Assembly (NCBI GenBank): GCA_038211695.1
Contig: JBBQVH010000007.1
Span: forward strand, 34,647 to 98,646
DNA: 64,000 nt
Direction of reading: 5' to 3'
Source: Blastocatellia bacterium
Lineage (GTDB): Bacteria; Acidobacteriota; Blastocatellia; RBC074
Part shown: positions 3,316 through 28,765 of the stretch, in pieces
How the letters are laid out: each line of letters begins with the position of its first letter
Position numbering within the stretch: position 1 is the stretch's first letter
Notes under the pieces: model-generated
What the model saw: only the letters and a program-made list of their open reading frames with translations
Databases searched by the model: none
Told to the model about the DNA's origin: nothing
Translations under genes and position numbers: made by a program

Positions 3316-4758
3316 TCAGTGAATATTGATGGTGACGGGATTTGCTTCTCTGCCGGCTGCTAACAGCCTGACCTCGACCTGGCCGCGTCCGATCAAGCTG
3401 CGCGGCAGCCGCACGTTAGTCTGGATCAGGCCAACGAAGCTTATTTGCGGCCCGACGTAGGTAACTTCAGCCGGCGTCCCACCAATCGTGACTTGATAAC
3501 TACCAAGAGATGTCTTGCCGCCTGTTCCAAACAGCACCAGAAAGTCCTGCTCCGATTCATCGCCAAATTCGATCGGAACGGCGACAAGCTTGTTTTGAAC
3601 AGGATCGAATCTGCTGATAGGTTCATAACTGTCCGTGCCGTTAGCTTTCAGCCGGTAAAGAACCGCCGCGGGCAATCCCTTGCCTGATGCATCTGCGGTA
3701 AAGAAGGCCGGTTGAAAATCAGTGATGCTCAGATTGCCCTCTTTAACCACCGCTCCGTTGCGCATAATTTTGATGGAAGCCGTGGGAAAAGTGGATTGAG
3801 CGCTGACGCCGGGCGGGACTTGAAAGTTGATTTGATTCGGCGAAACGAAAAAGAGCGGCGCATCACGTTCCACGCCAGCCTCGTCTTTGATCTTGATGCT
3901 GGTTCCGGCCAACTCTGTCGGTAGCGGTTGAGTGGTTGCCACCTGCGTTGTTGCCGAGAGGTTCGAGCCGAATGCCGTAACAATGGCTTCTTGAGCCACG
4001 GTTGGATAACTGCAAAAGCCGGGGCGGTAGTTAAAGTCTGCCGATGAGACGACAGCAAGGCTGACTGGCGAGGCTTCAAAATTCGACTGGTCCAAACTCG
4101 ACAAAAATAAAGGGCACGGAGTGAACACGTAACCAGGCTTGGTCGGGTAGATCACATAAGGGACGATGCCTGCTTTAATTCCAGGCACAGTCCAATTGCC
4201 ATTCGCATCGGTTTGCCCAGTGAAATGCGTTGGATAATACCTTGGGTAACAAGGGCCACCTCCTGGCTCAGGGCCATTTACATGAATAGTAACTCCATCC
4301 ATTCCTATGCCATTAAGCACAACGCGACCGGATACGCTGTAAGAAGAATAGACAATGAAATCAGCACCGGCGTCAGCCTTGATCCGATCCGAAAAAAGAG
4401 GGCTGAAGCTTTTACCTTGAATCTCACCTGGAGTCACACGATAAGTCGTTCCTTCTTCAAAACCGATTTGGCTCCATTTGCCATCAGCATCGGTTTGCAC
4501 AGGCGGCGGCACGACGCCTGTGCCTGATACACGAGTGAACGTAATCGTCACACCTGGAAACGGCGGGCATGAAAGAGGCGGCTTGCAGCCTATGCATTCC
4601 CCTCTGACCTCACCAGCCAAGCTGAACGTCGCCGCAGTAGTTTTGGGTTGAGCCTTAGCTGTCACTTTAACCAACGAAAAGCCAATCACCGAAGCCAGTA
4701 ATAAAAATGAAACCATGCCGATGAGAACGACAATAAAACCTCTTTGCTGTTTCACCAC
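3316..4758 (-). CDS. secreted protein with carboxypeptidase-regulatory-like beta-sandwich domains and a conserved ~215-aa C-terminal domain shared with two other proteins in this window (TIGR03437-like 'Solibacter C-terminal domain')
   Basis: Signal/TM N-terminus; SGRVVLNGIGMDGVTIHV CarboxypepD_reg-like segments; C-terminus ...FFVSPNQINFQ...GKGLPAAVLYRLKANGT...YVGPQISFVGLIQTNVRLPRSL aligns with C-termini of CDS 11222-14443 and 25817-28765. Confidence 0.7.
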   Translation of the reverse strand: MVKQQRGFIVVLIGMVSFLLLASVIGFSLVKVTAKAQPKTTAATFSLAGEVRGECIGCKPPLSCPPFPGVTITFTRVSGTGVVPPPVQTDADGKWSQIGFEEGTTYRVTPGEIQGKSFSPLFSDRIKADAGADFIVYSSYSVSGRVVLNGIGMDGVTIHVNGPEPGGGPCYPRYYPTHFTGQTDANGNWTVPGIKAGIVPYVIYPTKPGYVFTPCPLFLSSLDQSNFEASPVSLAVVSSADFNYRPGFCSYPTVAQEAIVTAFGSNLSATTQVATTQPLPTELAGTSIKIKDEAGVERDAPLFFVSPNQINFQVPPGVSAQSTFPTASIKIMRNGAVVKEGNLSITDFQPAFFTADASGKGLPAAVLYRLKANGTDSYEPISRFDPVQNKLVAVPIEFGDESEQDFLVLFGTGGKTSLGSYQVTIGGTPAEVTYVGPQISFVGLIQTNVRLPRSLIGRGQVEVRLLAAGREANPVTINIH

Positions 4759-4792
4759 TTTCTCCTTTGGGTAAATCGGGGAGAGTTTTTTT

Positions 4793-25686: not shown

Positions 25687-25816
25687 ATAGTTGATGGTGT
25701 TGTCGTGATGCAGTGTGGAAGCGGCGAGAAAGTAATCAAGGCAGGAAGGGCTGTCAAGCAACGGGGCTGGCTTAGGATGGCATTTGTTTTCAGTCTGAAA
25801 ACCAAAAGACGATTGA

Positions 25817-28765
25817 TTATCGAAATGCTACCGTCACCAAATTTGCCAACTGTCCATCCACCGTCACGGCGACAATCGTTTCACCGCTGCCCGCCAGACT
25901 GCGCGGTAATTGAAGATTGAGTTGGTCTTCACCAACGAAACTGCCCTGCGCACCTGCAAACGAGACATGGGCATTCACGCCGCCGACTTGCGCGGTGACT
26001 TTCTCCAATGCGCTGCGGTTGCGCCAGCCTGTGCCGAACAGCACCAGAAAAAGCTGGTCGCTGGCATTTCCCAAGTTCGGGCCAAAATCAATCGGTACGG
26101 GAACCAGTAAATTCTGGGCGTTCAGTTGTGCAACCGGTTCGAAGGTTTGCGAACCGTCTGATTTGACGCGCACCAGAACGGCTGCGGCAACGTCTTTTCC
26201 GTTGGCGTTGGCGGCAAACAGTCCGGGCGCTGTCTTTTCGATCAGCACTGTGGCGCTGGTCTGCATGGTTTGGCCGTCGGCAGTCATGCTGGTTACTGTG
26301 ACGGTGGCTTTGCCTTCGGCAGTGCCTGCGGGAATCTGAAAATTGACCTGGCCGGGTGAGACAAAAAACAGTGATGACGTGCGTTCGGTGTTGGTCTTGT
26401 CTTTCACCTTCACACTGGAGCCGAGCAGGGAAGTGGGAAGCGGAACGGTCTGCGCGATTTGGGTTCCGCTGGCCAGATTCGCGCCGAAGACGGCGACGAT
26501 CTCTTCGGGCGCCAGCGATGGCCCAGTGAAGCTGGCGGCGGAAACAGGCGCAATCGTGATGATGTCCGGCGTTGAGATTTTGCAGACGAAGGCGTCGCTT
26601 AATCCGCCGCCAAAAATTGCCTGCTCCGGCAGAACGGTCAAAAAGTCGTTCTTCAAGACCTGACCGGTGACGTAAGCGCTGCCGAAATTATCCACCGCGA
26701 TGTCCAGTCCGCGTTCGTCGAATCCATTCTCGCCGGTGAATGTGCTGCCCAGATAGGTGGAATAGATCAGCGATGCGCCCGCCGGATCAATCTTGGCGAT
26801 GAAGATATCATTGTCGCCGCGCAGGGAAGACTGCACGGGGCGCACGACGGGGAAGTTCTCTGATTCGGTTTTCCCCGTGACGTAAGCATTGCCCAGGTTA
26901 TCCACGGCGATGCCGCCGACAGGGATGTTGTCGGAAACCAAGCCCGTATTTTCCGTGCCGTTGCCACCCAGAAAGGTTGAGTAGAGCAGCGCCGTGCCTG
27001 CCGCGTTGATCTTGGTGACAAACGCATCCACGTTGCCACCGTATTGCCGTTGCAAAGCGTTGGCGGTTGGAAAGTCAATCGAGAAGGTGTAACCGGTGAC
27101 GTACGCGTTGCCGAGCGAATCCACGGCGATTGATCGCGCTTCGTCGGCGCGGTTGCCGCCCAGGAAGGTTGAATAGATCAGCGCCGATCCTGCGGCATTG
27201 ATCTTTGCCACGAAAGCGTCCTCGACGCCGGCGAAATTGCTTTGGACTGCGCCCACGATGGGAAAGCTTGGCGTGGATGTGAAGCCGGTGAGATAGACAT
27301 TTTGCAGCGAATCCACCGCGATGCCGTAACCGGATTCGTCATCTCGGCTGGCTCCGGGCGGCAGGTCGCCGCCCAGATAGGTCGAATACACCAGCGCGCC
27401 GTCGGGCGTGAACTTGGCGACGAACGCATCGCGCTGGCCGCGCAAGGCCGCTTGCATCGGGTTTTTGGTTGGGAAGTTCGCCGATTCGGTGCGCCCTGTA
27501 ACGTAGGCATTGTCAAAGCGATCCACCGCGATACCGAAGGCCGCGTCGAAGAAGCTGCCGCCCAGGTAGGTCGAATAGAGCAACGTATTGCCTTCAATAT
27601 TGAATTTGGCGATGAAGACATCCACGTTGCCGCGAAAGGTTGGCTGTGCGGCGTTGACCGTTGGGAAGCTGGTGGAATTGGTTTCGCCTGCAAAGTAAAT
27701 GTTGCCCGCTTTGTCCACGGCGATTCCCGATCCTTTATCTCCGGGATTGCGCCCGCCGATGTAGGTCGAGAAGATGACGCTTGATCCATTCGGGCTGAGC
27801 TTCATGACAAACGCATCATTCGCGCCCATCAGCATTGTCGCGTAAGCATTTTTCAGCGGGAAGTTGAGCGACGCGGTTTGGCCGGTCAGGTACACAGCGC
27901 CTTGCGAATCCACCGCAATGCCGTAGCCAATGTCCGTGCCGCTGCCGCCGAAGTAGGTTGAATAATCCACCACCGGATCAATCACCAACGGCAGATTGAG
28001 ATCGTATTCACCCAGCCGGAAGCCAACCGCGCTGTCATCCCCCCTGACCCCGATGACAAACTCGGCTGAAATTTCGCGCCGTGCACCGATTGTTTCCTGG
28101 TAAACAATCGGCTTGTGCATGCAGAGTTGCCGGCCATTGATCGCCAGCAGCAAATCGCCGTTTTCTGTGATGTGAATCTGATCGGCTCCGTCGAAAGCGA
28201 GTTTGATCTGTTGCGGATCGGCGTGCGGCGCGACGATGAAATCATATTCGAGTTGATGCTGGGTACCGTAAAAGACAGCGTCAATGCCTGTGTAAACGCC
28301 GCGTTGCCGCACCCGAGCATAGGTCGGAATATCTGTTTGCCAGCTGTCAGGATCGTTGCCGATGAAATAGTTACTGCGCGCTGAAAGCGGCTCGATTCCT
28401 TCCGTGATGGATTTGTTCGATGCGCCGATTAAGTTCAGGGCAAGGGCTGAACGCTCCTCTGTTCCATTGTTTGTTTTATTGCCGCGCAGTTCAAATCGTG
28501 TTTCCGAGGTGCCCAGATAAATCGTGTAGCCTTGTCCGCGCGAGACGAAGCGAACCGATTCGTGCGTCTGTCCGCGATTGGCTTCAAATCGGAGCGGCAA
28601 TTGACTCAAATTGGCTGTCAATGACGATTGTGCGGAGGCGGGAACATTTGAGCGCGCGTTTTGCCCTGGCCACGCCAACAAGCCAAAAACGCCAAGCCAC
28701 GTTGCCAAGCCCATCAGGAGCGCCGAAACGCCAGCGCGAATTTGGGGAGAGGATTGCTTCATCAT
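25817..28765 (-). CDS. secreted SBBP-repeat beta-propeller protein with the shared ~215-aa C-terminal domain
   Basis: Signal peptide; ~8 repeats of YSTYLGG...D.G.GIAVD..GN.YVTG.T.S.NFPT (SBBP/beta-propeller repeat); C-terminus ...[14 protein letters not shown]...[18 protein letters not shown]...[22 protein letters not shown] aligns with the two paralogs. Confidence 0.75.

Follow-up and report, generated by a model that had tools for sequence, protein, structure and literature searches.

A C-terminal tandem-TIG domain shared by three putatively exported proteins with unrelated passengers in a soil acidobacterium

The Acidobacteriota rank among the most abundant bacteria in soil. They possess a large set of extracellular enzymes, and it is poorly understood how these are displayed or released. 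Here we describe three genes in a 64,000-nt stretch of DNA (the window) from a soil acidobacterium, Blastocatellia bacterium. Their products, named proteins A, B and C in order of position, end in one and the same domain, TIGR03437 (Table 1). The three open reading frames (ORFs) proposed in an initial annotation of this DNA were all present in the ORF list and its translations, and the description of the products as 'giant' was overstated. Their N-terminal regions are unrelated, as had been proposed, since the best blastp match among them reached only E=0.87.

The passengers were characterized as follows. Protein B had been described as an HExxH metalloprotease with immunoglobulin (Ig)-like repeats, and we found that its HEIGH motif lies inside an NF038122 domain, accompanied by choice-of-anchor-Z (NF058597) matches of 173.5 bits in two stretches or repeats, a Pfam TIG match of 46.2 bits and a weak BACON match. 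Its ORF contains an upstream ATG at 11129; the ATG at 11222 was preferred because it yields the better, classical signal peptide (MNSRRRMFVYLSLFFVLFSFVISPPQHAQS). Protein C does carry the predicted SBBP beta-propeller, with six PF06739 repeats, together with a DUF7948 domain and a partial match to NF047494 in the SBBP region. For protein A, which begins with a hydrophobic segment (H12=3.0), the assignment as 'CarboxypepD_reg-like' was only partly sustained: the match exists but scores 23.5 bits, below the cutoff of 32.3 bits.

The shared domain occupies the C-terminal ~235-240 residues of A, B and C, which are 50%, 44% and 53% identical in pairwise comparison over their full length and without large gaps. 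This agrees with the proposal of one C-terminal module on unrelated cargo; the length, put at ~215 residues, is closer to 235 (the TIGR03437 profile has 225 positions). When a profile of the three copies was searched with hmmsearch against the six-frame ORFs of the window, only A, B and C were found, and each match reached the last codon. The family named in the initial annotation was correct. The NCBIfam model TIGR03437.1 ('Soli_cterm', 'Solibacter uncharacterized C-terminal domain', kind paralog_domain, cutoff 29.05 bits) matched the three whole proteins with 131.8, 144.3 and 138.9 bits (E=3e-38 to 4.5e-42, well outside chance), spanning residues 252-479 in protein A. It was also the sole significant NCBIfam family on the isolated domains, with 134-150 bits over profile positions 1-225, 11-224 and 2-223. 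Proteins A, B and C are new members of this curated family, which has no assigned function.

An AlphaFold2 model based on a 37-sequence alignment (mean pLDDT 84.6, pTM 0.65) showed two subdomains, both all-beta, at residues 1-107 and 118-239, with a linker of low confidence between them. Foldseek against the PDB returned two-domain Ig proteins (Fabs) and the IPT domains of MET; at the level of sequence, a profile search found no PDB homologue at E<=1. Pfam TIG (PF01833) matched the isolated domains of C and A with 26.6 and 21.9 bits, in two stretches each, above the gathering threshold of 20.9 bits that the domain of B missed (19.3 bits); in other family members the TIG match lands on the second subdomain. 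Furthermore, the two halves are weakly repetitive, with FVSPxQINYxIPxGTAxG in register with FVGLDQVNVxLPRSLAGRG (hhalign P=0.0024, 39 columns), and the domain opens with a conserved VA[ST]-VSAASF strand. Its invariant residues are FG, PLP, QxN (present twice), R126, E136 and LPR. The two Ig-like sandwiches anticipated in the initial annotation are thus supported by the model, the Foldseek matches and Pfam TIG, and the TIGR03437 domain, as modelled, is a diverged, fixed TIG-TIG pair of Ig-like beta-sandwiches.

Table 1. Genes and domains discussed in the text, with positions in nucleotides of the window
Feature	Position	Strand	Remarks
Protein A CDS	3316..4758	-	480 aa, GTG start; signal-peptide-like N-terminus, beta-sandwich passenger, TIGR03437 domain
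TIGR03437 tandem-TIG domain, protein A	3319..4038	-	134.4 bits isolated; tail ...VTINIH-stop
Protein B CDS	11222..14443	+	1073 aa; signal peptide, NF038122, choice-of-anchor-Z repeats, BACON-like domain, TIGR03437
NF038122 (metallo_LGF) metalloprotease domain, protein B	11555..12391	+	195.9 bits, cutoff 80; contains HEIGH
Top-scoring choice-of-anchor-Z (NF058597)/TIG repeat, protein B	13193..13459	+	Upstream of the terminal domain
TIGR03437 tandem-TIG domain, protein B	13724..14440	+	Tail ...VTVTIK-stop
Peptidase_M14 zinc carboxypeptidase	14650-17517	+	955 aa; 207 bp downstream of protein B
Protein C CDS	25817..28765	-	982 aa; signal-peptide-like N-terminus, DUF7948, SBBP repeats, TIGR03437
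TIGR03437 tandem-TIG domain, protein C	25820..26551	-	144.4 bits isolated; tail ...VTVAFR-stop
SBBP beta-propeller repeats, protein C	26666..27934, bounds approximate	-	PF06739, 179.6 bits, six stretches
DUF7948 domain, protein C	27971..28588	-	PF25778, 203.8 bits, residues 60-265
Type II secretion/type IV pilus-like cluster	33029-43006	-	
Prepilin-type pseudopilins (two)	34054-34509, 34527-35111	-	In the cluster
Secretin	35065-38088	-	In the cluster; 1007 aa, long low-complexity linker, C-terminal cohesin domain at residues 867-970
GspE/PilB with MshEN domain	38491-40113	-	In the cluster
GspF/PilC	40152-41372	-	In the cluster
Signal-peptide protein, no Pfam family	41888-43006	-	372 aa; just upstream of gspF
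Ser/Thr protein kinase	44497-46404	+	Transmembrane segment, then C-terminal FGE-sulfatase (SUMF1-like) domain

The family is large. When 1.84 billion cluster representatives were searched exhaustively with hmmsearch, 18,471 proteins were recovered at E<=1e-3, across which ~50% identity is kept, and 3,666 at E<=1e-30. A word-indexed search returned 1,094 proteins, many of them named 'TIGR03437 family' by JGI, and the NCBI names were Blastocatellia or Acidobacteriota. The nearest relatives of the window domains are from Blastocatellia, at 67-78% identity. In addition, a single peptide pattern gave at least 585 confirmed copies in one-genome-per-species contigs, and the genome-locus counts below rest on the best 80 independent loci from those contigs. 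These loci belong to Acidobacteriota/Blastocatellia metagenome-assembled genomes (MAGs), apart from bins titled Heliomicrobium/Heliobacteriaceae and one small Bdellovibrionales contig, titles that are probably label or binning artefacts and not spread beyond Acidobacteriota. Many MAGs bear the Firmicutes names ('uncultured Heliomicrobium sp.' or 'Heliobacteriaceae'); the loci with these or the Bdellovibrionales title include L001, L002, L005, L009, L013 and L024, among others. Up to 5 of the best 80 loci came from one MAG, and more than one copy was present within +/-6 kb in 17 of the 80. Paralogous expansion in the window amounts to three copies per 64 kb.

We found that the C-terminal constraint is strong but not absolute. 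The match ended 0-1 aa from the C-terminus in 133 of 144 top-ranking representatives from the exhaustive search and in 112 of 120 word-search proteins, and in raw genome DNA, independent of gene calling, a stop followed the domain within 0-1 codons in 88 of 95 copies. Extreme C-terminal placement, which the initial annotation had suggested checking for every match, holds for ~92-93% of copies; ~5-7% of strong matches are N-terminal, tandem or internal. Four proteins (P0121, P0122, P0124 and P0125) have one copy directly after the signal peptide and a second at the C-terminus, P0123 has a tandem pair, and the internal copy of P0176 and P0255 is succeeded by BACON and NHL domains. A conserved ~159-aa extension (...FTDSDGDIAFNG...WFCGLP...) follows the domain in P0062, P0103 and P0162, which end in ...LAG, and at locus L024 (3837-6200). 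A further locus, L012 (4741-7059), encodes ~118 aa after the domain. No stand-alone protein consisting of signal peptide and domain only was detected, the short matches being truncated fragments.

The end of the domain is itself conserved. Terminal copies share the consensus tail A-N-x-V-[RKT]-[VI]-x-[IV]-[KR]-COOH, and the final profile position is lysine or arginine (K/R) in 306 of 336 terminal copies. Among non-terminal copies this holds for only 4 of 19, and G or A follows there instead (Fisher p ~1e-11, which is indicative only as the sequences are related). Background long ORFs at the same loci end in K/R in 25% of cases. Of the three window proteins, B closes with K, C with R and A with H, which is rare at that position. 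The extended proteins described above have G there, or D in L012.

Such a tail invites comparison with the T9SS (type IX secretion system). The C-terminal domains (CTDs) of T9SS cargo are Ig-like beta-sandwiches that need a motif in their last strand, containing a conserved Lys (PMC11285876), and RgpB lacking its last two residues is retained in the periplasm (PMC11285876). TIGR03437 could similarly be a translocation signal, its folded sandwich and last strand being recognised in the periplasm and the cargo then exported and possibly processed. Extreme C-terminal placement, the conserved last strand with K/R that is largely lost when the copy is not terminal, the constant presence of a passenger, and a large family with several copies per genome whose sampled relatives are all from Acidobacteriota MAGs would fit this idea. 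On the other hand, copies occur right after the signal peptide, in tandem or hundreds of residues before the protein end; the domain, with its two subdomains, is 2-3 times as large as a T9SS CTD; not one T9SS or PEP-CTERM model matched even at E<=10; no machinery gene recurred alongside at the 80 loci; and the same passenger has close homologues without the domain. The terminal K/R might also merely cap the apolar last strand, for example by avoiding the recognition of apolar C-termini by PDZ proteases. We consider a translocation signal somewhat unlikely, and regard it as the main rival of the reading that we favour, surface retention through a common binding partner, with which it is not mutually exclusive.

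At the other extreme, the domain might have no specific targeting role and be a generic Ig spacer or a PPC-like helper of folding or secretion, possibly removed after export. Its fold is that of generic IPT/TIG Ig domains, and related NF038122 proteases have PPC domains in a similar region. The two subdomains, however, always form one fixed unit and almost never repeat arrays, and ~50% identity is maintained across thousands of unrelated passengers, unlike in spacers. Moreover, the domain is also found on non-enzymatic cargo, and in the family members inspected neither a Pro/Thr-rich linker nor a cleavage motif preceded it. Together, the fixed two-subdomain unit, its identity on unrelated cargo, the terminal rule and the fact that it never occurs alone argue against a generic spacer, which we consider very unlikely, and for one common partner.

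We also examined what the domain is attached to. In 70 diverse members there were 60 Pfam families, all of extracellular type, including SBBP, Kelch, FG-GAP and NHL propellers, BACON, Big_7, cohesin, DUF11 and peptidase M10, to which NCBIfam added extracellular nucleases, a beta-glycanase and others. As the initial annotation had it, the carriers look like signal-peptide proteins: by a heuristic, 87 of 121 M-starting representatives had signal-peptide-like N-termini compared with 3 of 128 internal control segments. Several of the heuristic 'negatives' plainly have a signal peptide, and others are truncated gene calls. The N-terminus does not appear to be the anchor, because lipobox-like motifs are rare (2 of 171).

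Since some passengers are glycoside hydrolases, nucleases or peptidases, the domain could instead be a ligand- or substrate-binding module, resembling a carbohydrate-binding module (CBM) or an adhesin tip, that directs varied enzymes and binding proteins to a common environmental polymer or to the cell's own exopolysaccharide matrix and is not an envelope anchor. Position tolerance and two-copy proteins are consistent with such a binding module. The passengers, however, are mostly beta-propellers, Ig/BACON modules and proteases and not carbohydrate-active enzymes, neither >90% extreme C-terminal placement nor a rule of terminal K/R is usual for CBMs, and no carbohydrate-binding family model matched the domain. 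We judge this alternative unlikely.

Several passengers belong to families that use known anchors. Choice-of-anchor-Z repeats were present in 9 of the 70 members, and 'choice-of-anchor' is the term for surface proteins whose anchors vary, with LPXTG, PEP-CTERM and T9SS among the alternatives (bioRxiv 10.1101/2023.03.06.531300). Other passengers resemble PEP-CTERM ScyF, ExeM (GlyGly-CTERM type), LipL53 lipoproteins and, by a weak match, a myxosortase-dependent metalloprotease. Among 120 close homologues of the NF038122 passenger of protein B, 15 have TIGR03437, and most of those without it have another short conserved C-terminal module or PPC-containing architectures. Because most passenger homologues lack it, TIGR03437 is an exchangeable C-terminal add-on that the passenger does not require, and it would seem not to be needed for export of the NF038122 passenger. 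The other module was seen in most of the homologues of window positions 11222-12700 (P0265-P0384) that lack TIGR03437. It reads ...KKIKVKG...LNLRxGxNRLRVxNGxxRSNLFVLxF-stop, lies at the extreme C-terminus with a last residue that is usually hydrophobic or aromatic, and matched no Pfam or NCBIfam family; a relationship to either TIGR03437 subdomain was not detectable (hhalign P ~0.1).

The reading that we tentatively prefer, as a plausible one, is that TIGR03437, as a C-terminal module, binds a single common partner and thereby serves retention at, or targeting to, the surface. The proteins, which do not look like lipoproteins, would be exported by Sec and lose their signal peptide. The C-terminal module would then bind one common envelope partner, for which an outer-membrane or surface protein or a conserved glycan of the envelope or matrix is a candidate. 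In this way diverse enzymes and binding proteins (metalloprotease, beta-propellers, Ig/BACON/cohesin proteins) might be kept and exposed at the cell surface or within the matrix. For an Ig-type domain, an identity of ~50% is unusually close conservation, as would fit a single shared binding partner. Non-terminal copies and proteins with one copy at each end fit a position-tolerant binding module better than a terminus-dependent export signal, and this tolerance, together with the passenger homologues that do without the domain, is the reason for our preference.

Several points weigh against surface retention through a common partner. The terminal-specific K/R and the near-absolute placement would more naturally fit a machinery that reads a free C-terminus. 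ORF clustering across the 80 independent loci revealed no specific conserved neighbour and no partner. The signal peptides were called by a crude heuristic and not by a trained predictor. Finally, literature searches on TIGR03437, IPR017803 and Soli_cterm returned nothing relevant on the domain.

The initial annotation had proposed an undescribed export or surface-attachment system, and named internal copies, cytoplasmic carriers and a generic Ig fold with no positional constraint as observations that would speak against it. Non-terminal copies and a generic IPT/TIG fold were indeed found; none of the carriers seen was cytoplasmic, and the positional constraint is real and strong. Such a system is not established by these data, as neither a processing or sortase-like gene co-located in the window or at the 80 loci nor a match to a known sorting-signal model was detected. 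In its specific form, the idea is that TIGR03437 is the cargo tag of an undescribed, Acidobacteriota-specific sorting or surface-attachment pathway, a functional counterpart of the T9SS CTD, whose machinery would read the tandem-Ig domain and its free basic strand ...V-x-I-K/R-COOH; we consider this somewhat unlikely. If it were true, thousands of surface enzymes and adhesins of soil bacteria would depend on the TIGR03437 tag.

The genes that neighbour A, B and C in the window have housekeeping roles (UppP, a class II aminoacyl-tRNA synthetase, RmlA/B, M14 peptidase, MlaD and MCCase), and no processing or sortase-like gene of the kind that had been suggested was co-located in the window or at the 80 independent loci. 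The clusters recovered at those loci were only shadow ORFs, followed by generic Ser/Thr kinases at 10 loci and sigma-54 regulators at 5; as the commonest real neighbour family, the kinases probably only reflect their own abundance. The window also encodes a Ser/Thr kinase with an FGE-sulfatase domain (Table 1). The M14 zinc carboxypeptidase next to protein B is suggestive given the C-terminal K/R, and its position is probably a coincidence, because M14 homologues were present at 0 of the 80 other TIGR03437 loci.

A cluster resembling type II secretion systems (T2SS) or type IV pili lies at 33-43 kb of the window (Table 1). This cluster and the carboxypeptidase adjacent to protein B were considered as dedicated partners of the domain and rejected, because their homologues do not recur beside other TIGR03437 genes: the secretin was found at 1 of the 80 loci, and the remaining T2SS genes, M14 and MlaD at 0 of the 80. 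The secretin homologue at locus L037 is 49% identical over residues 27-661 and seems to be without the linker-cohesin extension. Homologues of the 372-aa signal-peptide protein were found within 6 kb of TIGR03437 genes at 5 of the 80 loci (L005, L024, L056 twice, L057 and L075), and this protein may represent another expanded secreted family. Genes for T9SS machinery (PorK/L/M/N, Sov, PorU/V) were not seen within the window.

Our results add to the curated family a tandem-TIG fold, a quantified C-terminal rule with its exceptions, the terminal-specific K/R, a census of passengers and a negative neighbourhood result; they do not establish an undescribed export system, and they make that idea directly testable. 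At least 18,471 protein clusters at 50% identity carry TIGR03437, on cargo that ranges over proteases, nucleases, glycosidases, beta-propellers and modules of adhesin-like type. Should the domain be a sorting or anchoring tag, the surface proteome of an entire phylum would be defined by it, and it would provide a simple bioinformatic handle (the domain plus terminal K/R) as well as a surface-display tool. Should it be no more than a binding or structural Ig module, its assignment would be routine annotation.

Compared with known systems, the domain occupies a familiar place with a different structure. No known sorting-signal model in NCBIfam or Pfam matched the three isolated domains at E<=10, and none was among the listed co-occurring families (the top 25 of 68) in the 70 members; CBM and dockerin models of the two databases did not match the isolated domains either. 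TIGR03437 fills the same slot as PEP-CTERM/exosortase, GlyGly-CTERM, LPXTG and choice-of-anchor signals, downstream of choice-of-anchor-Z repeats and of relatives of anchor-using passengers. The tail of the PEP-CTERM/LPXTG type, a motif followed by a transmembrane helix and a basic cluster (in exosortase substrates a PEP motif and an Arg-rich cluster), is absent; TIGR03437 proteins end instead in a beta-strand of a folded domain, and the tails of A, B and C (Table 1) lie in such a predicted strand. The 12-stranded beta-barrel of autotransporters (type V secretion) also differs from the predicted fold, which consists of two soluble sandwiches, and no barrel family matched.

The models of type A/B T9SS CTDs (TIGR04183, PF18962 and others) gave no match to the window domains. 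The T9SS CTD is a single seven-stranded sandwich of ~80-100 aa that is strictly terminal and occurs in Bacteroidota, whereas TIGR03437 comprises two sandwiches of ~235 aa in all, is non-terminal in ~5-7% of copies and has its relatives in Acidobacteriota. As an anchoring or targeting tag it would be analogous in function to this CTD and to SLH domains, and homologous to no known tag. Within TIGR03437 itself, the window domains are members by an end-to-end match, C-terminal position, multiple copies and acidobacterial nearest relatives; the family is named after Solibacter, while the relatives found here are Blastocatellia-like instead. With IPT/TIG domains (PF01833) the window domains have in common the E-set Ig-like beta-sandwich fold. 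Ordinary TIG domains occur at any position, form arrays and diverge freely, whereas TIGR03437 is a fixed, conserved pair of ~235 aa at the C-terminus with a terminal K/R.

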